Source of the DNA: Candidatus Heimdallarchaeum aukensis
GTDB taxonomy: Archaea > Asgardarchaeota > Heimdallarchaeia > Heimdallarchaeales > Heimdallarchaeaceae
Assembly: GCA_021513695.1 (NCBI GenBank)
Contig: CP084166.1
Location: 2,624,001-2,688,000 of the forward strand
Direction of reading: 5' to 3'
Length of the DNA stretch: 64,000 bases
Shown: positions 620 to 35,641 of the stretch, piece by piece
Layout: every line of letters starts with the position of its first letter
Numbering within the stretch: position 1 is the stretch's first letter
The notes under the pieces: generated by a model
Seen by the model: the letters and a program-made list of their open reading frames with translations, nothing else
What the model was told of the DNA's origin: nothing
Database searches by the model: none
Position numbers and translations under genes: made by a program

Positions 620-720
620 CAAGTCTTCTAACTTTTCATTCAATTAAATGCTTTTCCCCTTTTTTTAATTATAAAGAAACACACTTAAAAACGTAAATAA
701 AAATAGTTCTTGAGAAAGAA

Positions 721-1974: not shown

Positions 1975-2046
1975 AATCAGAGACAAATCGACGGAAGATT
2001 TTTAGACTAGAAATAAGTATCTCAATATATAGGAAGAGGTATAGAA

Positions 2047-3333
2047 TTGATAAAGCATCTACTTATCCTAACAACATATGGGCAAATATTTTATAGTCAA
2101 GAATTTGGAACAGAAGAAACAGTGGATGTCGCTTTAACAGGAGGGCTAATGTCTGCAATATACTCCATGGCTACAGAAACTCAAAGAGAAAATATCACTG
2201 AATTTGAAATGATGACATCCAGAATCAAATTTAGAGAAGAAGAAAATGATCTATTATTTGTCCTTACTGTTGATAAGCGTATGGATGAAAAAGATGTAGA
2301 AGACTTACTTGATATGATCTCCAAAAGATTTTTTGAAAAATACGGAGAACTTCGAGTAGATGGACTTATTTTGAGTGATTTTGAAGAAGATGTCACTGAA
2401 ATTATAAATAAAAAATTATGGTACCTTGAAACCTCAAAAAGAAAGTTCAGGTTCTTTGATTACTTAGCTTTAATTGCTACTTCAGTAATATTAGGTTGGT
2501 ATATTTACTTATTGTTCAATATTCCCGGTTTTGTATGGTCCCCCTTGTTGAAAAGGTTATCTCAACCTGTAGACTTCGTACTGTATCTCTTAATTTTGAT
2601 GGCTTCTTTTTCTTTACCAGGATTAGCGTTGTATTTTATCTTGAAATATTCACACATTAAGGATATATTCAGGTTCTCAAAGGATTATTTAACAAGACCA
2701 ACAAGAGCAAGCTATGCAGAACTTTTACCAAACTACTTTTTACTAAGTATAGTCATTTCATATGTTATTTACTTTAGTTTTATGATATTCAGCAAGGCCT
2801 ACTTTTCAGAAATTACTGCTTTTCCGATGTACCCTGGAGCATTATTAGGTTCAGATTATGCACAACCTTTCTCCTTTAGTAATATTAGTAACTCTGATAT
2901 AGGTGATCAAGTGTTAGTAGGTTCGTTCACTTGGTTTAGCTGGGTTTTCTTATGTCCCCTTATCTATTCTTTGATTCTTGGAGAAAAAGAAAGGTGGAAA
3001 CTACTCAGAAATAGCATCTTTATTGCATCATTAGCTATAACTGTATTAATTGGCTGTTTAGTTGTAGGAGGAGTAATTTACCTACAAGCGGTTGGTTTTC
3101 ACCCAACAAATCCTGTTCTTTTTGCAGAAGATGTTTCATCTCTATTATATCAATTCGTTGCTCGTTTTCCATTGAACATCTTTTTCTATGGGTTTCTTTT
3201 ATTCCTAGGTGTTGGAATAAATAGAGTTACACCACCAAAGACAAAAGTTTCTTCACTTCTCGCTATTTGGGTATCAATTTACCTTACACTTATCATTCAA
3301 CGCTTATTCTCTGATCTATGGGCTGGAAGCTAG
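2047..3333 (+). CDS. Roadblock/longin-like N-terminal domain fused to a polytopic (~8 TM) membrane domain
   Basis: TTG start. The first ~100 aa (LLILTTYGQIFYSQEF...GGLMSAIYSMATE...LLFVLTVDK...) have a beta-alpha-beta-beta-alpha pattern typical of the Roadblock/LC7/MglB fold. The remainder is hydrophobic helices. Confidence 0.45.
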   Translation: MIKHLLILTTYGQIFYSQEFGTEETVDVALTGGLMSAIYSMATETQRENITEFEMMTSRIKFREEENDLLFVLTVDKRMDEKDVEDLLDMISKRFFEKYGELRVDGLILSDFEEDVTEIINKKLWYLETSKRKFRFFDYLALIATSVILGWYIYLLFNIPGFVWSPLLKRLSQPVDFVLYLLILMASFSLPGLALYFILKYSHIKDIFRFSKDYLTRPTRASYAELLPNYFLLSIVISYVIYFSFMIFSKAYFSEITAFPMYPGALLGSDYAQPFSFSNISNSDIGDQVLVGSFTWFSWVFLCPLIYSLILGEKERWKLLRNSIFIASLAITVLIGCLVVGGVIYLQAVGFHPTNPVLFAEDVSSLLYQFVARFPLNIFFYGFLLFLGVGINRVTPPKTKVSSLLAIWVSIYLTLIIQRLFSDLWAGS

Positions 3334-3399
3334 TCTCTCTCTTTTCTCTTTCTACAAAGAATTTTTAAATTCATAAGATAGAAGGTAGATGAAGTTACA

Positions 3400-4554
3400 A
3401 TGCTCTCATTTAGTGTTCTATTCTTTTTCCATAATAAAAAAAGAACTTACCAAGCAATATTAGTACTCTCTCTTTCCTTAGTAATCTATATTTCAACTAC
3501 TCTTCTGGTGAGAGGTTATTCTTCAAATCTTTCAGGAATGGCTAATATTATTGCTCCATCAGATGAATATATTATAATAGAAAAGGAAAAGTCACTATCT
3601 GAAAGTAGAATTGAAAATCAAACTATTGATTTTCTTCATGATTATGCAGAAAAAACTCCAAATATAAAAGCAATTGTCGCATACAAATATGTACCGATAA
3701 TTATAGAAGGAGAAAATGGTAGAATTAAGGAAACTTATCTTCGTTTATTGAATTTTACTTATTTTAATTCGTATTATCCTCGGGAGTATGTTTATTCGTT
3801 TGAAAATCCAGGTTCTGATGAGCTTATTTTAGGAAGATACTTAGCTTCTTTGTTATCTGCTGATAAAAACTCAGTAGTTGATGTTTATCTTCCAACCATC
3901 AATTTTAACACATCTCTTGTAATTTCTAATATAATAACTAACAGCGATGAATTTGAACTCGAAATAATTGCGAGCTTTAACAGCATTTTGAACTCACACT
4001 TTGATTATTTCTCTTTTGTTGAAATAAAAATTAAAGACCCTTCAACTATTTCTGCTATTCAAGAGGATATTAAAGAAAAGTATCCTGAGCTTGATGTAAT
4101 AAGTGAAAAGCAAACTCAAGAATTTATTATTTATGGCACAAATGATATCATACAAACTCTTACTCTATTACAATCCTTATTTTTCATTTTAATGCTTGTT
4201 TCAATTACGTATAGCATTTATACGTTAGTAAAAGAAAGTGAAAAAGAAATTTTTATTCTCCGTTCTATAGGGGCCACCAATTTAAATATTATTAGCCTTT
4301 TTCTTCTCCAATCATTGTATATAGGAATAATTTCAGCATTCTTGGCTTTAATTGGTGGATTTTTATTTATTGTTTCCATTGTTTCGGCAGTAACAGCTTT
4401 TTCTCATCTTCCTTATATTTCTGTCACAATATATTCAAAGTTAATTGTAATTATTTTTGGTTTTTCAATAGGTTTGTCAATATTATCAGGAATAATACCT
4501 TCTTTCCTTGCGTCAAAAATAAGATTACTTAAGGAGGATGAAATTGTTGTTTAA
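3400..4554 (+). CDS. MacB/FtsX-family permease-like membrane protein (N-terminal TM, extracytoplasmic domain, C-terminal 4-TM FtsX-type domain)
   Basis: C-terminal ILRSIGATNLNIISLFLLQSLYIGIISAFLALIGG... matches the FtsX/MacB permease core (R/K-x-IG-A motif). Overlaps the next gene by 17 nt. Confidence 0.55.
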   Translation: MLSFSVLFFFHNKKRTYQAILVLSLSLVIYISTTLLVRGYSSNLSGMANIIAPSDEYIIIEKEKSLSESRIENQTIDFLHDYAEKTPNIKAIVAYKYVPIIIEGENGRIKETYLRLLNFTYFNSYYPREYVYSFENPGSDELILGRYLASLLSADKNSVVDVYLPTINFNTSLVISNIITNSDEFELEIIASFNSILNSHFDYFSFVEIKIKDPSTISAIQEDIKEKYPELDVISEKQTQEFIIYGTNDIIQTLTLLQSLFFILMLVSITYSIYTLVKESEKEIFILRSIGATNLNIISLFLLQSLYIGIISAFLALIGGFLFIVSIVSAVTAFSHLPYISVTIYSKLIVIIFGFSIGLSILSGIIPSFLASKIRLLKEDEIVV

Positions 4555-7500
4555 CCTTAGACATACTTTCCTATACAATATCTTACCAAAAAAGAGATTA
4601 CTAATAGCTTTTATTGGTTTTTTCATTAGTTCAGTAGTTATATCTGGTGGATCAATATTAATGTATAGTATTGTTTCTTCTACTACAACGTACCTTGGTG
4701 AGAGTGATGATGTCCTTATAATAACGAAAGAAGGTTCTACAACTCCCTATACAAGCCAATTGCCTTTAGACTTTGTTGAAGCAGTGAAATTTGTACCTGG
4801 AGTAGTTGAAGTGTGTCCAGAGGTTTTAACTGCAGCAGTATATAAAAATAAGGCTATTTATTTTAGGGGAGTAGATACATATAGTTTTTGGAATTTTACT
4901 CCTTATACTTTAATTGATGGAGTATTATTAGATGACAAAGATACCTTTAATGTTACGATTGGATTAAATTTTGCAAAAAAGCATAAATTGGAGGTTGGAG
5001 ATTTCATAACTATTTATTCTACAAAAACAACTTCAGCTATTGAATTAAGAGTAAAATCTATTATTTACACGGGCACACTTCTAGATGATGAACTAGTAGC
5101 TCCATTAGCAATTGGACAATTTTTAACTTTTAATTCTTTCAACTATATTACTCATGTAAGAGTAAGAATTGATTTATTAAAAACTACAAAAGAAAAAGTG
5201 AAAAGTATAGTATCGAATAGTTATAAAATTAAAGTTGGAGTACGAACCTTTAATGAAACACAAGAGCTTAATGCTACTGTTTTCGTTCAAGATTTGCGTG
5301 GACAAAAAATTAACACAACTGAAATTGTAAACTCAAATTCTATGATGTTTGAACTCCCATTTAGGATGTATGAAATTTATGCACAGATAGGAAATTTCAA
5401 GTCAAATAAAACACAAATATTACCTGGAATCGACTTAGAGGTTAACCTTCTTATTCCTTATTTAGAAAGAGTTCTGAATTTTACTATTTTAACTGAAGAA
5501 AAAGAACCCATAGAAAACGCAAAAATAAGCTTAACTAGCGAAGATTTTGATGTTTATTCTTATACTGATGAAATAGTATTGTATTCAAATTCTAAAGGAA
5601 AAGCAGTTGTCACTGTCAGTAATGGTACGTATTCTGCTGTTATCTCTTATAAAAGATTCAATAAGAAAATCAGTTTTGCAACTCAGGAAAATAATGAATT
5701 TGAAATAACATTAATAAAGAAACATCCAGACTTACAAGTTAAATTTCCACAAAATAACTCTATAATACATGGTACAACACTTAATCTCTCTTTTGTTAGT
5801 TCTCCTGGTTATTCAATATATTATTACTTTGATGGCGATGGATCCAACACTTATACTTATTATAGTGAGTATACTAATCTACTAGTTCCTGATTTTATTT
5901 TACACAAATTTTCAGGAGAAGCAGGAGAACACACGCTTACGGTTTATACAAAAAATTCTTATTATTCAGGAAACGTGTCAGAATATTTTAATTCAACAAT
6001 TATTTATTTCACTATAATTGACCCACCTGAAACTTTAGAATTTGAAAATGTTTCAGATATGTCTAATTTAGAGCCCAATCAAGTACTGAAAGTAAACTTA
6101 CCATTTAACTATTCATATTATACCCCTTCTTATAGATGGGACGATAAAGAGTGGATAAGTATGAATAATAATCAGATCGTTGCAGAAACAACAATAGGAT
6201 TGCATAAGTTAGAAATTAAACTTAAAACGAATACTAAGCAAAAGAGCTATTTCTATTATTTCTCTATTTCAGAAAACAATTACAATTTTGGATTGTATAA
6301 CTTATCGTATCATAAAAGAATAAAACCAAATTCAATTTTTAAGGTTTGGTTTAATAATCTAACAGAACCACTCTTCTATAGTTGGGATAATCGTAGTTCA
6401 AATAATTTATTTGAACACGAATATATTTTAACAACAGGTTTATCAGAAGGGAGCCATTCATTAACCATTGGATTCCAAAAAGATGGGCTATGGAACAATA
6501 GAAGTTACAATGTAATTATTGACGCTAGTATTCCAAATGTTTCTCTTTCAGTAACAAATAATTCTATTCTAAATTCAGGAGAGTTTTTGAGCGTTTTTTC
6601 AAATGAAACAATTAATAATCTTGCATTTTCATGGGATAATCAAAAATATTCTCTATCTTATGGCAACAAAATCCCAACCCCTTATACAAACGGTACGCAT
6701 ACTCTAAGTTTGATTGGTTATGATTTAGCAGGTAATAAATTTAGTTTATTTTACAATTTCATTATTGTTAATCAAACAACTGTCAATCTATATGACTTCT
6801 TTTTGTCAAACGAATATTCAGGGTTGATCAATCAAACATTTATTGAACTCGAAATTTATTCTCCACCTAGTGTTTCAACTATAACCTATGAATTAGAAGG
6901 AATGCTAAATATTTCAGGAAATTACACAGAAAAACAACTATTTCATCTTTATTCTGGAAAATATAATTTAACAATTAAACTCTTCAACAACTCTCAGATT
7001 ATAGGTTACAGAAATTGGTCTTTTTATGTAATGGATGGATACAACAAATCATTCATTTCTTACTATGATTTACCACAAAATAATGATTTAGAAGATGTTG
7101 TGATCTACTTCCCAGAATTCGATGTTTCATATAAATTAGATGAATCATCAACAATATTTATTACAGATAATATATGGTCTTCAATTATTTTGTCTAACAA
7201 TTCCACTAACAACTTATTTTCATATTTGTTTGTTGATACACAACCACCTAGTGTTTCTATACTTTCACCAGATAAAGGGTCTGATCTTGCAAATATATGG
7301 TTGGATTTAAAAACAGAAGCTGTAGAAGTTTTTTACAAAATTGATTCTTTAACAACATTTACTAAATATTACTCTCCCGTAGTTATATCTAATTTATCAA
7401 TAGGAGAACACAAATTATATTTAACTTTGTATGATAGTTTGAAGAATAAGAAGGAACTTACATATACTTTTTCTATAGGAATCGAATATTCTCTCGTTAA

Positions 7501-8752
7501 TTTAACTTTTGTTTATTCTGAAATAGGAAATATTACTCTAGCCCCAAATTATGAATTTAAAGTTCGTTCTATTTGGAATAAAACTTTAATTTCTCTACAA
7601 TCAAATAACAATGGAACTTCACTATTTAAAATTTTGAAAGGACAATTTTATTTGTACATCACTTATGATAATACAACATTTGTATTTACAATCAATGCAA
7701 TAAGTAATATTAAAAAAACTATATTTCTTGGAAAAACAAATTTGACATTATCGTTTATTGATGTCTATGCGAATCTGCCAATATCACACCAGTACTTCAA
7801 TATTTACGATTATACAGGATTACTAATAAAAAGACTAAAAACAAATAGTACAGGAGAAACAGAAGTGTCTTTGGACACAGGCATTTATTCTGTGGAATAT
7901 GAAGTGCTTGATAATATTTATTCTTTTTATATTTATGTTTTTGAGGGAACGCAATCTTATACTTTTTATGTACCTTCACAGCCTGAAGCAATTAGTTTAA
8001 CTTTTATATTTAGCAATAACACTCAGGCCAAAAACTTGCCAATAATTGTTGAAACTGAGTTTTTTGGAAATATTAGTTTTTATACAGATATTAACGGAGA
8101 ATACATTTTGTTGCTACCTTATCAAAAAATAGTTATACATGTTTTTTCACCTTCAGGAAGAAGATTAATATCTTTAACTAGATATATCGAACCAGGTATT
8201 TCCTCTCTTAAAATCGTTATTCCTAGTGAAAAGAGTTCTACTTATCAAGAATTGCCCTTTCAGAATATAGGTGGATCTTTTGAAATACTTGTAAGTTTAT
8301 CTTCAGAGTATATGGAACATTATCTAAAGGGTTCTCTGCTTTTTACATATACTTTGGCTTATGCTGAAATTATCCTAATTGTATTAATTGTAAGTGCTAA
8401 CTTATACGCTATTTTGAGAAATATAAACACAGAAAGTAGAAAAGAAATAAGAATTGCTGAAATGATAGGTGCTACTCATTCTCATATTATGTTTTCTATT
8501 TTTTCCAGATTGGTTATTTTAACCTCTTTCTCCTATATTATCGGTTATTTTGTGGGGAACGAAATTCTTAAATTGTTAGCTATGAAGAACAAAACCGTAT
8601 TCTTTGGTCATACATTTATCCCAAAAGGTAACTTATATATTTTTGTTATATGTTATTTCTTAATTTTAATAATTGTAAGTGTAACAACATTATTCTTGGT
8701 TGTCTTACATAGAAAAAATGAGAAAAATAGAAAGGAAAAACATAAACTCTAA
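4538..8752 (+). CDS. Giant (1404 aa) FtsX/MacB-family membrane protein with a very large extracellular beta-rich region carrying >40 N-x-S/T sequons. Probable N-glycosylated surface protein.
   Basis: Perfect SD AAGGAGG at 4531-4537. N-terminal TM plus a MacB-periplasmic-like segment. Long middle region with Ig/CarboxypepD_reg-like beta repeats and dozens of NxT/NxS. C-terminal RIAEMIGATHSHIMFSIFSRL... is a 4-TM FtsX motif. Confidence 0.55.
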   Translation: MKLLFNLRHTFLYNILPKKRLLIAFIGFFISSVVISGGSILMYSIVSSTTTYLGESDDVLIITKEGSTTPYTSQLPLDFVEAVKFVPGVVEVCPEVLTAAVYKNKAIYFRGVDTYSFWNFTPYTLIDGVLLDDKDTFNVTIGLNFAKKHKLEVGDFITIYSTKTTSAIELRVKSIIYTGTLLDDELVAPLAIGQFLTFNSFNYITHVRVRIDLLKTTKEKVKSIVSNSYKIKVGVRTFNETQELNATVFVQDLRGQKINTTEIVNSNSMMFELPFRMYEIYAQIGNFKSNKTQILPGIDLEVNLLIPYLERVLNFTILTEEKEPIENAKISLTSEDFDVYSYTDEIVLYSNSKGKAVVTVSNGTYSAVISYKRFNKKISFATQENNEFEITLIKKHPDLQVKFPQNNSIIHGTTLNLSFVSSPGYSIYYYFDGDGSNTYTYYSEYTNLLVPDFILHKFSGEAGEHTLTVYTKNSYYSGNVSEYFNSTIIYFTIIDPPETLEFENVSDMSNLEPNQVLKVNLPFNYSYYTPSYRWDDKEWISMNNNQIVAETTIGLHKLEIKLKTNTKQKSYFYYFSISENNYNFGLYNLSYHKRIKPNSIFKVWFNNLTEPLFYSWDNRSSNNLFEHEYILTTGLSEGSHSLTIGFQKDGLWNNRSYNVIIDASIPNVSLSVTNNSILNSGEFLSVFSNETINNLAFSWDNQKYSLSYGNKIPTPYTNGTHTLSLIGYDLAGNKFSLFYNFIIVNQTTVNLYDFFLSNEYSGLINQTFIELEIYSPPSVSTITYELEGMLNISGNYTEKQLFHLYSGKYNLTIKLFNNSQIIGYRNWSFYVMDGYNKSFISYYDLPQNNDLEDVVIYFPEFDVSYKLDESSTIFITDNIWSSIILSNNSTNNLFSYLFVDTQPPSVSILSPDKGSDLANIWLDLKTEAVEVFYKIDSLTTFTKYYSPVVISNLSIGEHKLYLTLYDSLKNKKELTYTFSIGIEYSLVNLTFVYSEIGNITLAPNYEFKVRSIWNKTLISLQSNNNGTSLFKILKGQFYLYITYDNTTFVFTINAISNIKKTIFLGKTNLTLSFIDVYANLPISHQYFNIYDYTGLLIKRLKTNSTGETEVSLDTGIYSVEYEVLDNIYSFYIYVFEGTQSYTFYVPSQPEAISLTFIFSNNTQAKNLPIIVETEFFGNISFYTDINGEYILLLPYQKIVIHVFSPSGRRLISLTRYIEPGISSLKIVIPSEKSSTYQELPFQNIGGSFEILVSLSSEYMEHYLKGSLLFTYTLAYAEIILIVLIVSANLYAILRNINTESRKEIRIAEMIGATHSHIMFSIFSRLVILTSFSYIIGYFVGNEILKLLAMKNKTVFFGHTFIPKGNLYIFVICYFLILIIVSVTTLFLVVLHRKNEKNRKEKHKL

Positions 8753-8764
8753 AAACTAATTTCC

Positions 8765-11563
8765 TTACTTTATAACAAATCCATTTATCCCATAAGTAAA
8801 CCAACTATTATTGTAATAATATATGTTCAATCCATTTGTTGAAAGAGTTGAAACATGGTAATTAAGTTTTTCAATTTCATTTGTATATGAGTGGAAATAG
8901 GATATGGAAATATCGATCGAGTATATTGTGTAAGAACTCTGTTCCAATGATAAAAGTGTAAATTGGTTGAATGTTTCTCCTTCTGGTTTTTCCATTGAAT
9001 AATTTAGCACGGAGAATCGCCTAGTATGATTTGAAAAAGTAGAATATTTTGTAGAAATTGTGATATTAAAAGGCTGATTTGTTGGTATTGCTGTGAAGTC
9101 TTGAATGAGGTTAATTTGAGCATAACTGCCGTCTATGGGCGTATTATGGAAATTATTGGTGAATAAGCTCGTTTTACTATTATTGTTCATTAGAAGAAAA
9201 TCCACGGGTCCGATATAGGGATTGTTAAAATCGTAATCATTGAATGTGTATAATAAATACTCGTCATTATAAAAATTCAAAGTAAATAATTTGTTGTTTG
9301 CTAGTATTCTAAAGATATAATACTTCCAATAAATTTTTTCTATAAAGGCCTTGTACCAATCATTTTTTTGATTATGTGAAACAAAAATTGAAACATTGTA
9401 TTTATTGAAGAAATCAAAGAGTTTTGTTACATTTTCTCTATCTAAATATATTTTTTCTCCTATTTCTGAATTTTCTATGAAACTAAGAACAAAAACATCT
9501 ATTGTTGGTTGAGAAACATAGTATTCCAAGCCTGGAGTGTTAATTGATAATATTGTTTCCCAATCTGAAGACCCAAGTCTGTTAATAGCATCTTTCAATT
9601 CTTCATAGTTTGTTCTAGTGTAGTAGCTATAGCGAAGTTGATATTCATTAATATCAAATTTACAATAAGTAATCAGTGCAGCTTGAGCAGCCATTGGAAC
9701 AAATATTAATACAAAAAGTAAAAAGGTTGTAGCCATTCTCTGAATACGTTTTTTCTTTTTAAAACTTTTACTAAAACTAAGATTCCAACTTTTTTCTTTC
9801 CAAATAAACAAAAACACTATCAAAGTCAATAATAAAGAAAACGCAATAATAGTTCCAATGTGTGTGTGAGCTTTATACCAACGCTCATGAAAATTAGTAA
9901 TTACGCTAACTTCAAAAGGGAGGACTGGATAGAGCGATAAAAAGGCTGTTAAAGCAAAGAAAATAAAAGCAAAAAATCCATCACTTTGAAGTTTAAACTT
10001 TTCATTGAAGAAATTAATTATTTCTTTGAAACCAAACACTACAATTATCGTTAGTGGTACAACGATTGGGGAAAGATAGCGAATAGAGCCTAAAGCAAAA
10101 AAACCTTGCCAGAAAATATAGAAGAATATTAACCAGATGATTAATCCATTCTTTTTATCTTTATGAGTTTTATATAATCCTATAAGCTTTACAAATAACC
10201 ATGAAGGAGCAAACATTGTTGCAATTAAAATAGCAAATGTTGAAGTTACAAAAGTTGCAGAATGAGCATTTTCTAGGTAAGTTTCAACCAAAGGAAGACC
10301 TATACCTTCCCAATTAAGATTAAAAGAAGCGTTTTTAGGGTCCCAATAAGTGCTTCTTAGCATTTGTTCAACACCAGCTATTTTTAACATGTGTCGAGCC
10401 CAAAAATAACCTACAAAAATAGGGAAAGAAAAGATTACTGCAGTAAAAAGCCATCTTTTATATGAAAAAATTAATGTTTTAGATTGGATGATTACTGTTA
10501 CACAATAAATTGCAGCTAATACAATAAAAATTGATGTACCTACATAAATATCAAATAACGATTTTCTTACTATCTGAACGACAAACCCAAAAACAAGTAA
10601 AACTCTTAAAACTTTCCCGATTTTATCTGAATCCATCGCAGTAAAAATAATTAGGGGAATTACAAATCCACTCATTTTACTTAAAACACAACCAGCAAAA
10701 GATACAGACGTCAAAAGAGTATATAGGATTTGATCTTTATTTTCAGTGCTTTTTAAAAATTTCTTGTAATAGTAATAGGAAGAAGTAGTAAAGAACATGA
10801 TGTAAATTTCTTGGTAATATTGATATTCATAAATAAGAAAATACACAAAAGGAGTTACTAAAAAAGCAATCGTAGCCATATTTGAGTATTTTTCATTTAA
10901 TCCCTCAATTTTAGCAATTTTGTAACATAGATAAACAGTTAAACTAAAGAATAACATAGGAACTAATTGTATCATTTCAGTTAATGTGATGAAAAATGTA
11001 AAGGAATAAAGCATTACATTTAGTGGTGGTTTAAACATTGGAAGAAAGTTTAGTTCATTGATTTTTCCTAACTCACCTGTAGCAAAGATTCTAAAAGCAT
11101 TAGGGAGATAAAAGTGGAGTGCATCCCACCCTCTAATTGGTGAAACAAGTGCTTGAAAAGTGTAAGCACCAAGCATTAGACAAATAACCACAATTAGAAT
11201 TTTATTAATACTCTTCTCATACTTATATTGCCCTCTTAAAACTGTTTTAGGAAGAACCTTTATTATGAAATAAAACAAATAATAAAGGAAAACTGCAATA
11301 CTTATAGTTAGAAAAGTGTAAACGAAATTACTCATTAATTGTTTTGTTAGTTGACTAGGATAATAATAAGCTAAAAGACCACAAAAAATCATAGGGCCAA
11401 CGAGAGAGATTGATCCTAATACCGTTGAATCAAGGATATGTTCAAAAAATGTCTGTTTTTTTTCATTTTTTAGTAGTTTGTTGATAATTGATACTTCGAT
11501 TGAACCAAATGAAATTATAGAAATAACAGGTAAAATAACTCTGATGTCAAGCATAAATGTCAT
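8765..11563 (-). CDS. Large polytopic membrane protein (~13 TM N-terminal half, ~300-aa sequon-rich extracytoplasmic C-terminal half). Candidate GT-C-fold glycosyltransferase or oligosaccharyltransferase-like.
   Basis: 932 aa with many TM helices followed by a soluble NxS/T-rich domain. Its start overlaps the stop of the upstream GT2 gene (ATGA). No canonical WWDYG motif was seen, so the GT-C/AglB assignment is inference only. Confidence 0.3.
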   Translation of the reverse strand: MTFMLDIRVILPVISIISFGSIEVSIINKLLKNEKKQTFFEHILDSTVLGSISLVGPMIFCGLLAYYYPSQLTKQLMSNFVYTFLTISIAVFLYYLFYFIIKVLPKTVLRGQYKYEKSINKILIVVICLMLGAYTFQALVSPIRGWDALHFYLPNAFRIFATGELGKINELNFLPMFKPPLNVMLYSFTFFITLTEMIQLVPMLFFSLTVYLCYKIAKIEGLNEKYSNMATIAFLVTPFVYFLIYEYQYYQEIYIMFFTTSSYYYYKKFLKSTENKDQILYTLLTSVSFAGCVLSKMSGFVIPLIIFTAMDSDKIGKVLRVLLVFGFVVQIVRKSLFDIYVGTSIFIVLAAIYCVTVIIQSKTLIFSYKRWLFTAVIFSFPIFVGYFWARHMLKIAGVEQMLRSTYWDPKNASFNLNWEGIGLPLVETYLENAHSATFVTSTFAILIATMFAPSWLFVKLIGLYKTHKDKKNGLIIWLIFFYIFWQGFFALGSIRYLSPIVVPLTIIVVFGFKEIINFFNEKFKLQSDGFFAFIFFALTAFLSLYPVLPFEVSVITNFHERWYKAHTHIGTIIAFSLLLTLIVFLFIWKEKSWNLSFSKSFKKKKRIQRMATTFLLFVLIFVPMAAQAALITYCKFDINEYQLRYSYYTRTNYEELKDAINRLGSSDWETILSINTPGLEYYVSQPTIDVFVLSFIENSEIGEKIYLDRENVTKLFDFFNKYNVSIFVSHNQKNDWYKAFIEKIYWKYYIFRILANNKLFTLNFYNDEYLLYTFNDYDFNNPYIGPVDFLLMNNNSKTSLFTNNFHNTPIDGSYAQINLIQDFTAIPTNQPFNITISTKYSTFSNHTRRFSVLNYSMEKPEGETFNQFTLLSLEQSSYTIYSIDISISYFHSYTNEIEKLNYHVSTLSTNGLNIYYYNNSWFTYGINGFVIK

Positions 11564-13224
11564 TTTTTCTCTCCTTCATATTCTTTAATAACATCTGCAG
11601 CGCTTTTGGTAGATCTTGCCTTTTTAAGGAATTCTAATTCTTTGAAGTATGTGACAGTTATTATTGCAGGTACTGATAAAGATATTGCTGACATGATAAA
11701 CCAGCCAACTAAAGGATCGGGTGGAAAAGATAAGAATGATTGAACAATAGCATAATAAAATGGGATAGAAAGTAATAAGAGAACAAAAGACCAAATAGAA
11801 TATTTTATCTTTTCACTCATCTTACCTAATGTTTTAGGTTTTTTCTTAATTGTTCTTCTGAACTCTTTCTTTATTCCCAGAAAAGCACTAATTACAGCCC
11901 ATAAAAGAAAAGATTGTGCAGTTAACATTAAAATATAAAAAGCAGTAATTGTCCAAATTCCACCCCAAAATCCCCTCAAACGTATCATTCGGTCTTCTTT
12001 TTCTTCTCTTATCCAAGTAACGATCCCCATAACTAAATTTGCAAAAGCAACAAGAATAGGTGCCAAAATAAGTAAAGGAATAACTTCTGCAATGTTTGAC
12101 CTAATAAAGGGAACTTTCAAGAAGTAATTACATAAGAGAATAAAGAAATTAGCAAACCACATGCTTACTCCAATAGCAGGAAGAACAGAGGTTACTACCA
12201 TATCTATTTTGTTTAAAAATGAACCTTTACCTCGTAGAACGAATATTGTTCTTTTCACAAAAATCTGTGAAATCCCATAAGTCCATCTCCACACTTGATT
12301 TATCATTCCTATAGGTGTCCAGGGTACTAAACCATTACTACATATTTCATGAATGTAATTGGATTTGTAACCTTTTGCAATAAGAACGAATGATGTATCT
12401 GTATCTTCTGCAAGGGTATCTTCTAAAAATCCTCCAACTTCTTTAACTAACTTAGTTTTGAATACTCCAGTTGTTCCTGCAAAAACTACTCCATGACGTG
12501 TGGCACGACTTTTTTGCATTATGTGAAAAAATTGACTGTGAATAAATGCACTGCTTCTTTGCATGTAATTATCTTGATTAACAAACATAGGTTTTCCTTG
12601 AACAAAAATAATTTTTTCATCAGTAAAACCAGATAAACAAGTTTTCAAAAAATTCTCTGTTGGAATATGATCAGAATCTAACAAAGCAATATAGTCACTT
12701 GAAATTTGTTTTAAAGCATTATTAATTGCTCCAGCCTTGAACCCTTTTCTGTTTTCTCTATGTATATATTTTACATTCTTTTTTTGGCAAAAATCTCTTA
12801 ATTCGTTATTTTCTCCTTCTGGTGTATCATCTGCTATAATAACCTCAAAAAAGTTTTTAGGGTAATCAACATTTAATGCTCCCTCTATTGTTTGAGATAA
12901 AACTACTAAAGGTTCCTTATATGCAGGAATAATTATTGAAACAGAAGGTATTTTCTCTTTTTCAGAAAAAGAAAAACTTCCAGTAATCGGAATTTTATAG
13001 TCAGAAGAAGAACCAATATAATAATAAATGAAAATAGAATAAAAGGCACTAAATAATTCTATAAACAGTATAGCGAAATTTTCGATAACGATAAGAATAT
13101 TTTTTGTTCCTCCATTCATCTTTGCATATTGAACAATAAGAATTGAACTTGAAATAATATAGTATAATAGAAATCCAAATAGTAAATAAAACAAAATATA
13201 CCAAATTACTTTTACTTTAGACAT
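11560..13224 (-). CDS. Processive family-2 glycosyltransferase (cellulose/chitin-synthase-like beta-glycan synthase) with N- and C-terminal TM helices
   Basis: Contains IIIPAYKEP...IIADDT (DxD), LLDSDHIP, LAEDTDT (TED) and QVWRWTYG (QxxRW), the hallmark motifs of processive GT2 synthases. Flanked by TM segments. Confidence 0.7.
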   Translation of the reverse strand: MSKVKVIWYILFYLLFGFLLYYIISSSILIVQYAKMNGGTKNILIVIENFAILFIELFSAFYSIFIYYYIGSSSDYKIPITGSFSFSEKEKIPSVSIIIPAYKEPLVVLSQTIEGALNVDYPKNFFEVIIADDTPEGENNELRDFCQKKNVKYIHRENRKGFKAGAINNALKQISSDYIALLDSDHIPTENFLKTCLSGFTDEKIIFVQGKPMFVNQDNYMQRSSAFIHSQFFHIMQKSRATRHGVVFAGTTGVFKTKLVKEVGGFLEDTLAEDTDTSFVLIAKGYKSNYIHEICSNGLVPWTPIGMINQVWRWTYGISQIFVKRTIFVLRGKGSFLNKIDMVVTSVLPAIGVSMWFANFFILLCNYFLKVPFIRSNIAEVIPLLILAPILVAFANLVMGIVTWIREEKEDRMIRLRGFWGGIWTITAFYILMLTAQSFLLWAVISAFLGIKKEFRRTIKKKPKTLGKMSEKIKYSIWSFVLLLLSIPFYYAIVQSFLSFPPDPLVGWFIMSAISLSVPAIITVTYFKELEFLKKARSTKSAADVIKEYEGEKK

Positions 13225-13250
13225 TTAACACACTTTAATTCCAACTTACT

Positions 13251-14849
13251 TTAATTAATTTCATAAATATTATTCTTTTTAGTTTTACTCATAAAATAAA
13301 GAGATAAAGGTGTAGTTAATAACATCGAAGAACCTAATACACCTAATCCTAGCCAGAAGGCCCCACTAAAAGAGTTGTTGAGGAAGTCTAGCACAGAACA
13401 GGCAATCATTATTCCTCCAACAATGGTAACAAAAACAAGATAAGAATAAATTGGGACTCTCTCATTCCACTTGTCTTTCCCCTTAATAGGTTCTCTATTG
13501 GATATAAGAGATTTAAAAGAAGCATAAATTGTAAAAGGATTAAAAACAAGTGCGAATAAATAAAAGTAAATTAAATCTCTATATCTATAATTCATGTGAT
13601 TTCTATTTGCAAAGCTTATTGAAAGAATACCTGAAAGATAATATGATAGGCTAAAGGACACTGGTATTATTAATAAAGGTAAGAAATCTTGAATTGGCGG
13701 ACGTATTAACGATATGTTGAAGAAAAACATAATTATATAGACAAATCCAGAGAAATAAAGAATAGAAGCCACTAAGAAAAGTGAGATGCTGAATAATAGG
13801 TCAATTTTGTCAAAAATTCCTAAATCAGAGCGTAATATTTCTCTCCATTTTTTAGTAAGAACCCTAAATTGACCTTTGGCCCACCTGATAATCTGTGAAA
13901 TGAGCACATCAAACTTTGCAGGAACAAGACCCAAACTTCCATATTCGTCTAAAAGCACACCCTTGTATTTTTCTTTAAGTATTTCAACAGTAGTGGCGAC
14001 ATCTTCAGTGAAAGAATAGATAGGAATTCCTCCAATCTCTTTAAGAACCTTTGTTCTAAAGCATGCAGATGAACCGTTGAAAATAGTTGTGTTTCTAACA
14101 CTTTTAGATCTGCCAAATATTTCGAAAAATTGGGTATACATCACAGATTCCCATAATTGTAATTTGGACTTAATTTCTCTAAAATTAACTTTTGTCTGGA
14201 CATATGCAATTTTATTATCTTTTTCTAGTATTCGTACACACTTTGAAAGAATACTTGGAAAAATTACATGATCATAATCTAAGAAAAAGATGAAATCTGT
14301 TTCTATGGTTTTTAAAATTTCGTTTAACATTCCCGCTTTGAAATACTTATTTGAAGACGAGAAAAAGTAATTAGCATTATAATGTTCAGCTAAATTCTTA
14401 ATTTTTAGCGCAAGTTCTTCGTTTAACGTATCATCGCCTATTATAATTTTAATCTTTGATTTTGGATAATCCATTTCATTAAGTGAGACTAGTGTTTCTT
14501 TTAACACGTCTATTATTGGGTTATGAACTGGAACAACTATTGTTACTTTGGGTAGTTCCTTGTTTTCGCTTTCTTGAGTTTCAAGATTGATTAATTGAGT
14601 GTGAAAACAACTATTTGCCATATGATAAAATAATAGTGTGGTATAAAAAATACCAAAAGTTTCAAAGAAAAGAGAAATAAAATTAAATATAATTTGAAAA
14701 GTTAAATTTGTAGTAATTTTTGAAACAAATAATGGATAAATATTTAGATACATTGACCATATAAGGTAAAAGCAACCTAGAACTAATGATGTTAATGTGA
14801 AAAAGTAGAGTAAAATTCCAACAAATTTCCATTTTTTACTAGGTTTCAT
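13251..14849 (-). CDS. Processive family-2 glycosyltransferase, paralog of the adjacent gene
   Basis: Contains TIVVPVHNP...IIIGDDT, FFLDYDH, FTEDVATT (TED) and QIIRWAKGQ (QxxRW). N-terminal and C-terminal TM helices. Confidence 0.7.
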   Translation of the reverse strand: MKPSKKWKFVGILLYFFTLTSLVLGCFYLIWSMYLNIYPLFVSKITTNLTFQIIFNFISLFFETFGIFYTTLLFYHMANSCFHTQLINLETQESENKELPKVTIVVPVHNPIIDVLKETLVSLNEMDYPKSKIKIIIGDDTLNEELALKIKNLAEHYNANYFFSSSNKYFKAGMLNEILKTIETDFIFFLDYDHVIFPSILSKCVRILEKDNKIAYVQTKVNFREIKSKLQLWESVMYTQFFEIFGRSKSVRNTTIFNGSSACFRTKVLKEIGGIPIYSFTEDVATTVEILKEKYKGVLLDEYGSLGLVPAKFDVLISQIIRWAKGQFRVLTKKWREILRSDLGIFDKIDLLFSISLFLVASILYFSGFVYIIMFFFNISLIRPPIQDFLPLLIIPVSFSLSYYLSGILSISFANRNHMNYRYRDLIYFYLFALVFNPFTIYASFKSLISNREPIKGKDKWNERVPIYSYLVFVTIVGGIMIACSVLDFLNNSFSGAFWLGLGVLGSSMLLTTPLSLYFMSKTKKNNIYEIN

Positions 14850-15035
14850 CTAATCCCGTACATCGCTTTTTAATTCGGATATTTATAGAGTTTCTTAAAT
14901 ATTTTGAAAAGACTTATTGAGAATAAAAGATCAGGGTGAGCTAGGCTCATCACTATTCAGCGGTTGTAATTCTTCGTCATCTCTATTATTCTCAAAAACA
15001 TTTTAATTATACTGTTATAATTTTTCTTATTGTTC

Positions 15036-16070
15036 TTATTCTTCTTTTTCTTCTTCAAAAGGAACTTCTTCTATTTGTTCCTCTTTATCCTCATCTATCA
15101 TCTCTATTTTCTCATCTTCAGTCAGCCTTTTTTGTATTAATTGTTCAGGAGGTAAAAGAGCTTCTATTTGGTTTTTAGGAACTGGAGGTGGTACAAATCT
15201 TTTTACAAGATTTTGTATTTTTTCTTTTTCTTCAGTTAATTTTAGTTTATCACAGATTTCATAAAATTGTTCTTCAAATAAATATAATTCTTCGAGTAAA
15301 TCCTTATAGATTGTATTTAATTCTTTATCGCTCAATTTTGCTATTTCGTCAGAACATATTTCCTGAATATATTCCTTAAGAAAATCGTCGTCTTTTGTTT
15401 CTTCAGCAATGAAGAACATAAATTTGGAGATGTTAGGTTGAGTACCATGTACGGCAGTCTGAATGATTATTTTCTTATACTTTTTAGTTAAATATTCTCT
15501 AAATTCACCTTTTTCTATTTTTAAAGCATCTGATAATTCATCTTCCCAATTTTCATCCAATTTGGAAAAATTAAATGCTATTGCTGGTATAGTGTGTTTA
15601 ATAATAACTTCTCGATGCTTTGTTAAATCCTCTTCTGGTATAGCTTTTATATTTTTTAGAAATAAGTTGTAATATTGTATATTTCCTGAAATTTCGAAGT
15701 ATTTTAGTAATGGAATAACAACTTGTTGAGGTTCTAAATCTTTAAAATATAGTTTTAGTAAATATGGTCTAAAAATATAAGGAGCAACCATTAAAAGCAA
15801 CAATGGAATAAATAGATAAGAAATTGGGAATCTTAAAGCAAGTAAAATTACACTTACAACAATGATAATTGCGTATAGTCCATAATTAAAAAGTCTTAAT
15901 GTCTTTTTTGCATTATATCTATTAGCACAAATAGGACAAATTCGTTCTTGTTTCATATTATAATGTTGATCTAAATCACAAATTGCTAATTTACATTCAG
16001 TACACTTTTCAGTAGATTCATTATGAATATGAAAAGCACAATTTTCTTTTATTTCTCCATCAAAACTCAT
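15036..16070 (-). CDS. Hypothetical membrane protein with an N-terminal Cys/His zinc-ribbon (B-box-like), 2 TM helices and an acidic Glu-rich C-terminal tail
   Basis: CAFHIH...CTECKLAICDLDQH...CPICANRY cysteine/histidine pattern, then hydrophobic LYAIIIVVSVILLAL..LFIPLLLLMVAPYIF, ending EEVPFEEEKEE. Confidence 0.3.
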   Translation of the reverse strand: MSFDGEIKENCAFHIHNESTEKCTECKLAICDLDQHYNMKQERICPICANRYNAKKTLRLFNYGLYAIIIVVSVILLALRFPISYLFIPLLLLMVAPYIFRPYLLKLYFKDLEPQQVVIPLLKYFEISGNIQYYNLFLKNIKAIPEEDLTKHREVIIKHTIPAIAFNFSKLDENWEDELSDALKIEKGEFREYLTKKYKKIIIQTAVHGTQPNISKFMFFIAEETKDDDFLKEYIQEICSDEIAKLSDKELNTIYKDLLEELYLFEEQFYEICDKLKLTEEKEKIQNLVKRFVPPPVPKNQIEALLPPEQLIQKRLTEDEKIEMIDEDKEEQIEEVPFEEEKEE

Positions 16071-17894: not shown

Positions 17895-18770
17895 ATGAGT
17901 GATATACTTAATATTGTCCTTCTTGGCTTGGAAAACGCAGGGAAAACAACTCTTCTAAACACTTTAAAAGGAGAACAATTTAGAGACACAAGTACAACAA
18001 TTGGAATTAATGTAGACCTTATTAATTATAATGGATATAAATTTCAAGCAATTGATGTAGGAGGACAAAGAGTATTTCGAGACACATTATGGCCGCAATA
18101 TACGAAACTTGCTAGTGGAGTAATCTTTATTTTTGATATATTTGATAAAGGAAAGTTAAGCGAAGCAAAAAAATGGTTTGATGAAATCCAGACATGGGTA
18201 ACAAAAAAGGCTGTTTTTCTTTTTTTAGCAAATAAGATAGATCTAAAAGAAGAAAGAAAAGATTTTATGTCACTTGATGATGTAATAAAGAGCTTCAACT
18301 TAGAAAGATTTTCTCTTTATCCTGAGCAAAGTTTCAGAATTTTTGAAGTTTCAGCAAAAACTGGAGAAAATGTGGATGTGGCAATTAAATGGTTGTTTGA
18401 GAAATTGTCAGAGCAAGTTAGAAAACAAACAAATCTTTCTTTCATATTCGTCCATAATAGTGATTTTGAATTAATATATGTTAATTCTGAAAAAGTGAAG
18501 GTTTTAGAAAAACTACTGTTAAAACATGTTTCTCAACTTAGAAAAAATAACATGAAAACTTCATTTCTAAATGTCGATGAGTATAAATTATTTTTTTATG
18601 TTGAACCTCAATTCAGCATTATTTTTGGGGCAAAAAATATATACAAACAGTTCTTCCTAAATGTAGCCTTAGAAATAGCTAATGAGCTTAAAACAAACCA
18701 TCTGCCATTAACTGAATATAAACCAGAACTTGATGGAATAATAAGTAGAATTTTAATAAAGGAAAAATAA
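17895..18770 (+). CDS. Small Ras/Arf-superfamily GTPase fused to a C-terminal roadblock/longin-like domain
   Basis: G1 GLENAGKTTLLN, G3 DVGGQ, G4 ANKIDL and G5 SAKTG fall in the first ~170 aa. The last ~120 aa (FIFVHNSDFELIYVN...KLFFYVEP...FLNVALEIANEL) show a beta-alpha-beta-beta-alpha pattern. Confidence 0.6.
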   Translation: MSDILNIVLLGLENAGKTTLLNTLKGEQFRDTSTTIGINVDLINYNGYKFQAIDVGGQRVFRDTLWPQYTKLASGVIFIFDIFDKGKLSEAKKWFDEIQTWVTKKAVFLFLANKIDLKEERKDFMSLDDVIKSFNLERFSLYPEQSFRIFEVSAKTGENVDVAIKWLFEKLSEQVRKQTNLSFIFVHNSDFELIYVNSEKVKVLEKLLLKHVSQLRKNNMKTSFLNVDEYKLFFYVEPQFSIIFGAKNIYKQFFLNVALEIANELKTNHLPLTEYKPELDGIISRILIKEK

Positions 18771-18844: not shown

Positions 18845-20404
18845 TTATTCTGGTAAGCGTATCAAGTCTCGAAAGACCTCTGATTTTTTCTCTAAAACTT
18901 CCTTTTCTCCTTGACCATTAACGAAAATAGAGAATGTTTCTAACATTGGAGAAGAATCTCCACTAATCTTTAGATATATTCTCTGCTCTTCATTTTCTTT
19001 GAGAACATCTAAAATCAAAGTCATTTTTTTGTAGTCGTCTTTGTTTTCTTCAATTATTTGTATGTATTCTGGTTCCTTTCTAGTTATAACGTGCATTAGG
19101 GGTATTTTGTCTTCAATTGAAATTGCTCCTTCTAAATTCTTTGTAGGCTTGAATACGTAAAGAATAGTATATCCTGATTCTGTACTTTTAAGGTAAATGA
19201 ATTTAGCGCTTTTAATGATTGTTTCTCCATTTTCATTCTCAACAACTTTTTTAGCTCTAAATAGATAAGGATAATAGTCAAGTTGGTAGGTTTTAGTTAG
19301 AATCTGTCCCATGTTGACATTCTTATGCTGCCAGCGGACAGTTGTTCCTTTCATTTTTGCTTTTTCAATTGTTCCGGTAGGAGGAATTACATCAGGATTG
19401 CTTCTTTGAATTTCAAATTCAGGAGGAATGTCATCTGTAATATACAATTCATCGATGCTGCGATTATGAATGTTCAAATATTTTGTCTCTGATACAAACT
19501 GTAATCCTTCTGTTTTAATTGTTTCAAATACGTTTAATATGTTAATGACTTTTTTATCCATTACTTCGAGAATTGTTCTATTAATTCTCCTCCTAAAGTA
19601 ATATTTTGCTTGAAATTTTTGTTTTGGGGCAAGTTCTGGTATGTTCCAAATAATTTCCAAAAATTCATCTTTCTTGTTTTTTAATGGATCCACTTCTGCA
19701 CCGTGAATATCAATTTTGTTGATTTTAAAACAATAAGGAATCTGATCAACGATTTTTATATCCTTTATTGGTGCATCATACTCATTTTCTAATTCTGATT
19801 CGATAACAAAATCTCCTATTCCTTCTCCAACAAGTATGCTGTTATCTTTCTCTGTTGTAACTAGTTTTCCGTCGGGTGTTCTAAAACTATTTGTACTTTT
19901 AATCTTTTCAGGATATTGATACTTGTTATCCTCTATTATTTTGAAGATTAGCTCTTTTTTTGCATATTCATCATCAGGAAGTTCGGAAAGAGTGTTTTCT
20001 TTTCCAATCACACGAGTGTCTTCTTCAATTTCCCAATTTTCTTCTTGTTTTCTTGTATCAAGTGGTTTTGTATCTACAATTAAATCTTCAATAGGTTTTT
20101 CTAATATAGTATCAGTTTTTAAAAGTCGAAGAATTAGTCTATAGTCTGCATTTATTCCCAACTCTTGCAAAAATTCTTCTATCCATCGAGCAACTCGAGT
20201 TTCGTGAGGAGCTAGAATTGTAGCCCAAAACTCAAAAACTGTTTTAACCACTTCATGCAGGTTTTTGCATACTCTTTCATTTATTAACCCAGACTTATCA
20301 TGAAAAGAAACAGTTCCACCTAAAGCAGTAGAAAATAAATTTGTGTTTGGTTCAATGTTGATAAAATATCGAGTAGAGCCCCAAAGAAGTTTTCCCGTAG
20401 TCAT
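18845..20404 (-). CDS. Hypothetical protein (519 aa, beta-rich, no recognised motif)
   Basis: Long uninterrupted ORF with a proper ATG. Its start overlaps the stop of the upstream gene (ATGA). Confidence 0.3.
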   Translation of the reverse strand: MTTGKLLWGSTRYFINIEPNTNLFSTALGGTVSFHDKSGLINERVCKNLHEVVKTVFEFWATILAPHETRVARWIEEFLQELGINADYRLILRLLKTDTILEKPIEDLIVDTKPLDTRKQEENWEIEEDTRVIGKENTLSELPDDEYAKKELIFKIIEDNKYQYPEKIKSTNSFRTPDGKLVTTEKDNSILVGEGIGDFVIESELENEYDAPIKDIKIVDQIPYCFKINKIDIHGAEVDPLKNKKDEFLEIIWNIPELAPKQKFQAKYYFRRRINRTILEVMDKKVINILNVFETIKTEGLQFVSETKYLNIHNRSIDELYITDDIPPEFEIQRSNPDVIPPTGTIEKAKMKGTTVRWQHKNVNMGQILTKTYQLDYYPYLFRAKKVVENENGETIIKSAKFIYLKSTESGYTILYVFKPTKNLEGAISIEDKIPLMHVITRKEPEYIQIIEENKDDYKKMTLILDVLKENEEQRIYLKISGDSSPMLETFSIFVNGQGEKEVLEKKSEVFRDLIRLPE

Positions 20405-21012: not shown

Positions 21013-21131
21013 AATAGCCACTCTTTCTTCACCTAAGTTTGTTTAACTAACTATATAATTGTTACTCTCGCCAAATCTTTTCTTATAATTCTATTTGTGA
21101 TTTTTGCTCTTCCTAATTATAAATGTTGAAA

Positions 21132-22479: not shown

Positions 22480-22686
22480 AAATCAGAACGAGAATAGAGC
22501 AATAAAAGACTTTCTCTCCTTCTACTAGTAGATACACCAATTATATATTTAATACAATTAAGATATATATCTGATTATATCTATATTATTTTGGAAAGAG
22601 CTATACTATAATTGATTTTAGCTAAATAATCTTCTTCCTATGAAACAAATTTTAAATAGATATATGATTTTTTAAAGTAGAAGAAA

Positions 22687-29259: not shown

Positions 29260-29262
29260 AAA

Positions 29263-31772: not shown

Positions 31773-31777
31773 GAATA

Positions 31778-33233: not shown

Positions 33234-33235
33234 AA

Positions 33236-35629: not shown

Positions 35630-35641
35630 TAGGTGAATTAA

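Follow-up and report, generated by a model that had tools for sequence, protein, structure and literature searches.

Membrane synthases of glycosyltransferase family 2 (GT2), such as BcsA, hyaluronan synthase (HAS) and chitin synthase, move the glycan that they polymerize across the membrane in a channel of their own. Enzymes of this family are inverting, and an ED base together with a QxxRW tryptophan marks those with sugar-hydroxyl acceptors, such as BcsA, as opposed to those with phosphate acceptors, such as the Dol-P-Man synthase DPMS and GtrB. Glycosyltransferases of the GT-C fold depend on lipid carriers, and the characterized PMT and PMT_2 members include protein O-mannosyltransferases. 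In Salmonella O:54, the processive GT2 synthase WbbF exports a lipid-anchored polymer, which the WaaL ligase transfers outside the cell. A GT2 gene directly upstream of a GT-C gene is the canonical order in the ArnC/ArnT, GtrB/GtrC and CsbB/YfhO systems (PMC13390465). Here we describe an operon of three minus-strand genes, encoding two BcsA-like GT2 proteins (GT2-A and GT2-B) and a 932-aa GT-C protein, in a 64,000-nt stretch of the Candidatus Heimdallarchaeum aukensis genome (contig CP084166.1, positions 2,624,001 to 2,688,000), which is called the window below and from whose first nucleotide all coordinates are counted. A first reading of the letters by a model, here called the initial annotation, had proposed a polysaccharide-synthesis operon of Asgard origin, and GT2-B is indeed 100% identical to a Ca. 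Heimdallarchaeum aukensis protein.

The components belong to known superfamilies (BcsA-type GT2, PMT_2/ArnT-type GT-C and, in the adjoining genes, FtsX/MacB-type permeases), and none is an orthologue of a characterized enzyme: the scores stay below the equivalog cutoffs, and PilZ, BcsB, MIR domains and WWDYG are all lacking. The unusual feature is that a synthase of the self-exporting type is paired, in a fixed and translationally coupled manner, with a lipid-carrier-dependent GT-C protein. The operon probably builds or decorates a cell-surface glycan. There is about an even chance that a β-glycan made by the synthase is modified or attached by the GT-C protein outside the cell.

Organization of the operon

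GT2-A (13251-14849; 532 aa), GT2-B (11560-13224; 554 aa) and GT-C (8765-11563; 932 aa) are transcribed in this order from the minus strand and form one operon; the three open reading frames (ORFs) lie where the initial annotation had placed them. GT2-A and GT2-B are separated by 26 nt (13225-13250, read from the sequence), probably too short a spacer for a separate promoter or terminator. At the junction of GT2-B and GT-C, ...GGAGAGAAAAAATGACATTT, the GT2-B stop TGA and the GT-C start ATG share the tetranucleotide ATGA at 11563-11560, an overlap recognized from the outset, with GGAGAG just before it. The 186-nt AT-rich intergenic region 5′ of GT2-A (14850-15035) contains a candidate TATA box, TATAAATA, found by eye at 14887-14880, 31-38 nt before the GT2-A ATG; because the genome has a GC content of ~29%, such a match is expected by chance, and its role as a TATA box is conjectural. 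All three proteins have orthologues in ~30 species-level Heimdallarchaeia genomes, with 43-60% identity and with their motifs kept, and the three ORFs are therefore real genes under purifying selection.

The two GT2 proteins

GT2-A and GT2-B form a separate orthologue set each and are 29% identical over 421 residues, so that the duplication is old. Both match the Pfam families Glyco_tranf_2_3, Glycos_transf_2 and Glyco_trans_2_3, and in NCBIfam both score best against CelA, the catalytic subunit of cellulose synthase (5.9e-42 for GT2-A and 6.4e-52 for GT2-B), and next best against PgaC/IcaA. BcsA is the top solved structure for both in a sequence search of the PDB (phmmer, 7e-34 for GT2-B). 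The scores against CelA/PRK11498 are 143.6 bits for GT2-A and 176.5 bits for GT2-B, compared with an equivalog cutoff of 699.1. The Pfam scan found no PilZ domain (PF07238) in either protein, as had been said, and no BcsB-like neighbour among the window ORFs. Lacking PilZ and a BcsB partner and scoring below the CelA cutoff, the GT2 proteins are not assigned as BcsA proper or as cellulose synthases. They resemble BcsA (PDB 4hg6, 5ej1, 7lby) in their GT-A motifs and, in GT2-B, in transmembrane helices (TM) that correspond to TM3-TM8, in the interface helices and in an FxVTxK-type loop; they differ in lacking PilZ and BcsA TM1-2, in the absence of BcsB, BcsC, BcsZ and BcsG, and in an operon that has two tandem GT2 paralogues and a GT-C partner.

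The GT-A motif set D, DxD, (T/A)ED and QxxRW is present in both proteins, at D139/D140, D191/D193, E282/D283 and Q319-R322-W323 of GT2-A and at D132/D133, D183/D185, E273/D274 and Q310-R313-W314 of GT2-B, with the DxD set in LDYDH and LDSDH, respectively. The initial annotation was right about DxD, about QxxRW (QIIRWAKGQ in GT2-A, QVWRWTYG in GT2-B) and about the TED of GT2-A (FTED); GT2-B has AED instead. The motifs DD, FKAG..N, LDxDH, VQ, G(S/T), GG..ED and QxxRW..G are kept in 24 GT2-A orthologues (as DD, FKAG, LDYDH, VQ, NGS, FTED and QxxRW) and in 27 GT2-B orthologues, and the catalytic motif residues vary little or not at all among 26 and 60 sequences, respectively. Because the ED base and the QxxRW tryptophan are conserved, a sugar-hydroxyl acceptor is favoured over a phosphate.

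Profile comparison and a structural model both identify GT2-B as a homologue of the BcsA core, with two TM helices, a GT-A domain, IF2 carrying QVWRW, four to five further TM helices and a gating loop. The GT2-B family profile aligns with residues 80-569 of Rhodobacter BcsA (4hg6) at 233 bits (E 7e-68), a stretch that comprises TM3-4, the GT domain, IF2 and TM5-TM8, and the family motif eFdrTpK (FxRTxK) falls directly on the BcsA gating loop RFAVTAK. This loop, F455-x-x-T458-x-K460 in GT2-B, is invariant or nearly so, and K163, D183, D185, E273, D274, W314 and T458 are invariant. The AlphaFold2 (AF2) model of GT2-B (pLDDT 88.7, pTM 0.88) has helices at residues 3-37, 41-73, 304-331, 336-368, 384-410, 412-448, 469-498 and 506-535, in an order that would map one-to-one on the BcsA core minus TM1-2 and PilZ. 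In Foldseek, its best match is BcsA (E 2.4e-22, query-normalised TM-score 0.62-0.65, 555-580 columns), followed by hyaluronan synthase, PcManGT and plant CesA. The model reproduces the arrangement of BcsA TM3-TM8 and the interface helices, and also the gating loop, and its predicted transmembrane channel is superposable on BcsA TM3-TM8. For GT2-A, BcsA is the top match of the family profile (8e-34), with an alignment that ends at BcsA TM6, and outside the clade its closest relatives are BcsA proteins that carry PilZ. The proposal that both GT2 proteins group with processive synthases and not with Dpm1-like enzymes holds in that BcsA is best by NCBIfam, PDB and fold; its channel part holds for GT2-B only.

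A polymer synthase is favoured by the conserved catalytic-base Asp and QxxRW tryptophan and, in GT2-B, by a BcsA channel that is complete in the model and has its gating loop, and from sequence and model we infer processivity and a polymer product for the GT2 proteins. Alternatively, they might glycosylate a membrane lipid (dolichyl phosphate, a lipid-linked sugar or a glycolipid), with the BcsA-like TM domain moving the lipid-linked mono- or oligosaccharide outward as the GT-C donor, in a flippase-free version of the classical GT-A + GtrA + GT-C system. QxxRW GT2 enzymes can act on lipids, and GT2-B passes the Pfam model GT21 (37.3 bits, cutoff 21.7). Its profile matches ceramide glucosyltransferase (UGCG) at 5.7e-17, and the second-best PDB family by profile is the archaeal PcManGT (6yv7), a short GT2 of minimal cellulose-synthase-like fold that acts in N-glycan assembly. 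Set against the 233 bits for BcsA, however, the same profile gives 130 for PcManGT, 108 for plant CesA, 65 for UGCG, 58 for HAS and 57 for DPMS, the last over the N-terminal half only. The modelled GT2-B also keeps the complete BcsA channel architecture with its gating loop, the conserved catalytic-base Asp and QxxRW tryptophan fit a sugar acceptor, and two paralogous 6-7-TM synthase-like enzymes exceed the need of a Dol-P-sugar synthase. Taken with the gene context discussed below, lipid glycosylation by the GT2 pair is judged unlikely.

Processive synthases had been described as uncommon in archaea, which puts it too strongly: BcsA-like GT2 proteins also occur in Nitrososphaerota, Aenigmarchaeota and Thermoproteota, and a 2021 transporter census noted a “possible cellulose synthase”, seen in Heimdall only (PMC7997004).

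The 932-aa GT-C protein

On its own, the 932-aa protein had no match in Pfam, NCBIfam or a PDB phmmer search, and because these direct searches were empty its assignment needed homologues, profile-profile comparison and structure. A word index gave 45 homologues of ~924 aa, almost all from Heimdallarchaeia, and an exhaustive hidden Markov model (HMM) search of 1.84 billion cluster representatives gave only 186 relatives at E ≤1e-3. Tested at their gathering scores, the Pfam model PMT (PF02366) was passed by 5 of 23 aligned family members (28-33 bits, gathering score 22.7), with profile positions 73-197 falling on residues ~183-306, and PMT_2 (PF13231) by half of the distant relatives (25/50), to which the close family aligns in hhalign with 100% probability (E 2.7e-59, 721 columns). 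By these profile comparisons the protein is a PMT_2/PMT homologue, not a member by the HMM criterion. Matches of the family profile to GPCRs in the PDB (E 0.003) were dismissed as spurious.

The AF2 model contains, before residue 634, 15 helices of at least 18 residues and ~4 shorter ones, giving ~16 TM rather than the 13 first counted; these include three N-terminal helices added to the GT-C core. Residues 634-932 form an external C-terminal domain, α/β followed by β-sandwich. The polytopic core and the long first external loop (EL1) with juxtamembrane helices correspond to the GT-C fold, and the structural matches include Pmt1, Pmt2 and Pmt4. The initial annotation had left open whether this protein is a GT-C-type transferase or a channel or export partner; a glycosyltransferase fold was found, and it is the first of these. 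EL1 (residues 141-179) carries the invariant motif G145-W146-D147-x-L-H-x-Y-x-P just past the TM helix 119-140, with D147 seven residues on, and then K178-P179-P180; further conserved residues are acidic 246 and 252, K296, R495, E551 and H566. The K/R-rich loops 31-38, 110-118, 469-471 and 589-605 put EL1 with D147, and residues 634-932, outside, so that both the loop-1 Asp and the C-terminal domain are predicted to face outward. D147 corresponds to the conserved acidic residue that GT-C enzymes have in the first external loop and is a candidate catalytic residue.

Two closer identities were rejected. The protein lacks WWDYG (there is no WWD) and has no STT3 match in Pfam, and its likeness to AglB/STT3 is at the level of fold only. 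No DE motif is present in residues 141-179 and no MIR domain in 23 family members, which excludes a PMT (GT39) orthologue. Homology and model together point to a divergent GT-C protein of the PMT_2/ArnT lineage, for which the fold suggests a polyprenyl-phosphate-linked sugar as donor. Compared with ArnT (GT83) and PMT, it is extended by three N-terminal TM helices and by a C-terminal domain of 300 aa, lacks a Pfam match, MIR, DE and WWDYG, and is encoded after a BcsA-type GT2 gene instead of an ArnC- or Dpm1-type one.

The C-terminal domain had been thought rich in sequons. It contains 7 N-X-S/T sites, compared with 5.9 ± 2.1 expected in a shuffle test (z 0.5), and is not enriched: its N-rich composition accounts for that number. 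At the position of the C-terminal β-sandwich, distant relatives carry CBM_11, or DUF2341 with a ConA-like lectin domain, hinting that this domain may bind carbohydrate.

Conservation of the gene neighbourhood

The neighbourhood was scored at 41 non-redundant loci. GT2-B lies directly upstream of GT-C in 29 of the 38 evaluable loci, and the distance from its stop to the GT-C start is -14 to +13 nt in all 28 scored junctions. A value of -2631 nt in L007 is an ORF-extension artefact, and so is the apparent 1,475-aa fusion of GT2-B and GT-C at this locus, where a stop lies in frame (EYGE*KMEI). L031, L006 and L013 have the ATGA overlap as well, and so does L038, a deeply divergent locus with only 28% identity in GT-C and 37% in GT2-B; its junction sequence is GGAGAGGGAAAAATGA, with a gene for an unrelated DeoC aldolase upstream. 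L035, L038 and L040, with 28-29% identity in GT-C and different genes on the other flanks, keep the coupling of GT2-B and GT-C; two of them, L038 and L040, have a GT2-A-like gene ~2 kb upstream on the opposite strand. A functional link between GT2-B and GT-C is indicated by the ATGA coupling and by the adjacency in 29 of 38 loci, L035, L038 and L040 included. A Ras-family GTPase gene is also found near the GT2 and GT-C genes of L038.

The adjacency might instead be inherited synteny of three enzymes that act in unrelated pathways. In the core clade the conserved block also takes in the housekeeping genes for AdoHcyase and LysRS, so that much of the synteny there is phylogenetic inertia. The overlap of GT2-B and GT-C and the GGAG preceding it nevertheless survive in deep lineages that have no AdoHcyase, LysRS, p344 or p428 gene nearby, and junction gaps are ≤13 nt in all 28 scored loci; the absence of any functional unit is scarcely credible. 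The p344 gene (15036-16070, minus strand), upstream of GT2-A, encodes a protein with a Cys/His-rich N-terminus (C..H..C-x2-C...C-x2-C), 2 TM helices and a highly acidic C-terminal region, and without a family match in Pfam or NCBIfam. It occupies this position in ~23 core-clade loci and not in divergent ones. Its candidacy as a regulatory subunit of the operon was dropped on account of this core-clade restriction and of the DeoC aldolase in the same position in L038, and it is probably not a core part.

The gene context bears as well on whether the GT2 proteins supply a lipid-linked donor. In the order GT2-then-GT-C and in the modelled outward GT-C active site, the operon resembles the three-component GtrB/CsbB/ArnC + GtrA + GtrC/YfhO/ArnT systems, whose GT2-GT-C order is the canonical one noted above. 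A distant PMT_2 relative, P0239 (L046), has exactly the classical arrangement, adjoining a 249-aa Dpm1-type GT2 gene and sugar-nucleotide enzymes, and the ancestral GT-C context was therefore probably an ordinary GT-A + GT-C module. No Dpm1-type or small Dpm1/GtrB-type GT2, no GtrA-type or Wzx flippase and no AglB was found in a Pfam scan of 33 window ORFs, among them all those of at least 120 aa that lie within 14 kb of the operon; the GT2 pair thus has no rival there as donor synthase or flippase. The GT2 proteins differ from their small Dpm1-like counterparts, however, in being synthase-type, with QxxRW and 6-7 TM, and GT-C persists without adjacent GT2 genes in several lineages (L017, L025 and L033/L045). 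At these loci its association with the permease gene FtsX1404 persists and the other neighbours differ, including SecY and IF-2B in L045. At L004 (= L017), from one Heimdallarchaeial MAG, positions 1-9602 hold a 6210-aa ORF and the gene for an LRR protein, which replace p344, GT2-A and GT2-B upstream of GT-C. This region calls to mind the “Aloposon” elements with giant genes reported from Heimdallarchaeum (PMC8813620).

The adjoining FtsX-type permeases

GT-C is convergent with FtsX1404 (4538-8752, plus strand), which ends 12 nt from it and encodes a 1404-aa FtsX/MacB-type permease; the start of this gene is overlapped by FtsX384 (3400-4554, plus strand), encoding a 384-aa FtsX-type permease (Pfam FtsX, 4.9e-12) that is co-conserved with it. 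FtsX1404 matches Pfam FtsX at 9.5e-11 (residues 1278-1393), with an N-terminal MacB_PCD match (2.1e-5) below the cutoff, and had no sequence match in the PDB. It has four TM helices and a ~1,200-aa ectodomain (residues 45-1260) with 42 N-X-S/T sequons, compared with 19.3 ± 3.8 expected (z 6.0), and this architecture is kept at ~1,390-1,445 aa in >20 Heimdallarchaeia genomes. It shares with the MacB/LolCE/FtsX permeases the four-TM FtsX domain and the large extracytoplasmic domain between TM1 and TM2, and differs in the size and sequon enrichment of that domain, in the sub-cutoff MacB_PCD match and in the lack of an ABC ATPase gene nearby (Pfam, the same 33 ORFs). The giant glycoprotein that the initial annotation placed next to the operon is thus a true gene neighbour with a sequon-enriched ectodomain, and the protein is an FtsX/MacB-type permease. 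Another giant ORF considered for that glycoprotein, of 4184 aa (42811-55365), was rejected; its product opens with a Topo VI B subunit and does not belong to the cell surface. Both FtsX genes have a further co-oriented neighbour conserved with them in the core clade, p428 (2047-3333, plus strand), whose product has a soluble N-terminus with a weak Fuz_longin_1 match (3.8e-4, below cutoff) followed by ~8 hydrophobic segments.

GT-C is convergent with, and immediately adjacent to, the FtsX1404 gene downstream in 27 of 34 evaluable loci, with the two genes near each other in 3 more. This conservation and the sequon z of 6.0 suggest a link, and we infer that FtsX1404 belongs functionally to the system. 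The same evidence would suit a different reading, in which GT-C partners FtsX1404 and FtsX384, O- or N-glycosylating the ectodomain or helping to assemble it, and the GT2 genes are a separately acting envelope module, without a substrate in common with GT-C, whose co-transcription arose in a single Heimdallarchaeial lineage. The convergent loci include the GT2-less L017, L025 and L033/L045, and the structural matches to Pmt1, Pmt2 and Pmt4 are to families that include protein O-mannosyltransferases. Convergent genes are not co-transcribed, however, whereas GT2-B and GT-C are translationally coupled, a coupling kept independently in L035, L038 and L040 at 28-29% identity. Glycosylation of N-sequons is moreover the task of AglB/STT3, of which GT-C has neither the WWDYG motif nor a family match, and it also lacks the DE motif and the MIR domains that are specific to PMT. 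A GT-C protein devoted to the permeases alone is quite unlikely.

A possible route for a surface glycan

In the composite model of a synthase-made glycan that is modified or attached outside, the GT2 proteins would polymerize a glycan from nucleotide sugar at the cytoplasmic face and pass it across the membrane by their own channel, in the manner of BcsA, HAS and chitin synthase. A β-linked product is proposed because GT2 enzymes are inverting. GT2-A might form a hetero-oligomer with GT2-B or add a second sugar. Translational coupling would yield GT-C in fixed stoichiometry with GT2-B, and GT-C would use, outside the cell, a dolichyl-phosphate-linked sugar made elsewhere in the genome, either decorating the emerging polymer or coupling the glycan to an acceptor at the surface, for which the adjacent FtsX-anchored, sequon-enriched 1,200-aa ectodomain would be the best candidate. 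A carbohydrate-directed role of GT-C is suggested by the CBM_11 and ConA-like lectin domains of its distant relatives, and the protein would here take the role that the periplasmic partners BcsB, BcsG and PgaB have in bacterial synthase systems. As the initial annotation had it, the locus may, by way of hypothesis, be one dedicated to an extracellular matrix.

Several points weigh against this composite model. At the gating-loop position GT2-A has an 8-residue deletion, with a conserved P-x6-W-N-E-[KR] instead of the loop, and no BcsA alignment was obtained for its C-terminal channel half. EL1, the putative catalytic loop of GT-C, has a pLDDT <50 in the model, and the CBM_11 matches of the GT-C relatives are marginal (24-27 bits, cutoff 27). 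GT-C is not strictly dependent on the GT2 genes, since it occurs without them nearby at the three sites named above, and the window has no Dpm1-type GT2 or flippase among the scanned ORFs, yet GT-C needs a lipid-linked donor. We know of no polymer from Heimdallarchaeia; for cultured relatives, S-layer-like structures of N-glycosylated proteins and no envelope polysaccharide have been reported, and no description of this operon, or of any BcsA-type synthase paired with a GT-C protein, was found in the literature.

A variant of the model is that the glycan of the BcsA-type synthase stays on a dolichyl (pyro)phosphate or other lipid primer and that GT-C ligates the whole chain to a surface acceptor, most plausibly the FtsX ectodomain, in which case the FtsX mechanotransmission cycle could aid assembly. 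The WbbF/WaaL pair provides a conceptual precedent, as a synthase followed by a polytopic membrane transfer enzyme. It differs in that WaaL is not of the PMT_2 type and the two genes are not translationally coupled; for the operon here, a lipid-anchored polymer would be conjectural. En bloc ligation by GT-C is decidedly improbable.

Other features of the window

Upstream of the operon region, an overlapping pair of genes encoding 519-aa and 206-aa proteins without a family match, followed by a gene for a geranylgeranyl-reductase-like FAD oxidoreductase (GGR_cat), occupies 18845-21021 and 21132-22502 on the minus strand. The same three genes also adjoin the block in L001, and a polyprenol or dolichol reductase role of the GGR_cat protein would be relevant to the GT-C donor. 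Arf-family small GTPases are encoded at 17895-18770 (plus strand; 291 aa, with a ~120-aa C-terminal extension without a family match) and at 25852-26490 (minus strand).

The products of a long co-oriented run at 27230-38936 (plus strand) include pyruvate:ferredoxin oxidoreductase, Fe-S/FAD oxidoreductases and the large subunit of a NiFe-hydrogenase. Both the GC content of this run (~0.35-0.38) and its positive GC skew are well above those of the rest of the window. The 4184-aa ORF on the minus strand begins with HATPase_c (residues 38-135) and the Topo-VIb transducer domain (residues 352-518, E 3.5e-57), continues for ~3,600 further residues with helix-hairpin-helix-like matches (RAD51D_N, RNA_pol_A_CTD), and lies directly upstream of the gene for Topo VI A/Spo11 (41395-42801, minus strand); it looks like a giant Topo VI B fusion.

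Implications for Asgard cell surfaces

Asgard cell envelopes are little known; S-layer-like N-glycosylated proteins and a few N-glycans have been reported. Few envelope-related gene blocks of Heimdallarchaeia, the class usually placed closest to eukaryotes, are conserved as strongly as the operon, which predicts a surface β-glycan or glycoconjugate that has not been looked for. The pairing of a synthase with a GT-C protein joins two glycosylation strategies that are normally found in separate pathways. Without a substrate common to the GT2 and GT-C proteins, the locus would come down to a set of glycosyltransferases that are well annotated but ordinary. With a shared substrate, it would represent a new pathway architecture and a defined three-gene target for heterologous expression; and were GT-C to ligate the whole chain to a surface protein, the lineage closest to eukaryotes would possess an Asgard-specific route to a proteoglycan-like coat of the cell.

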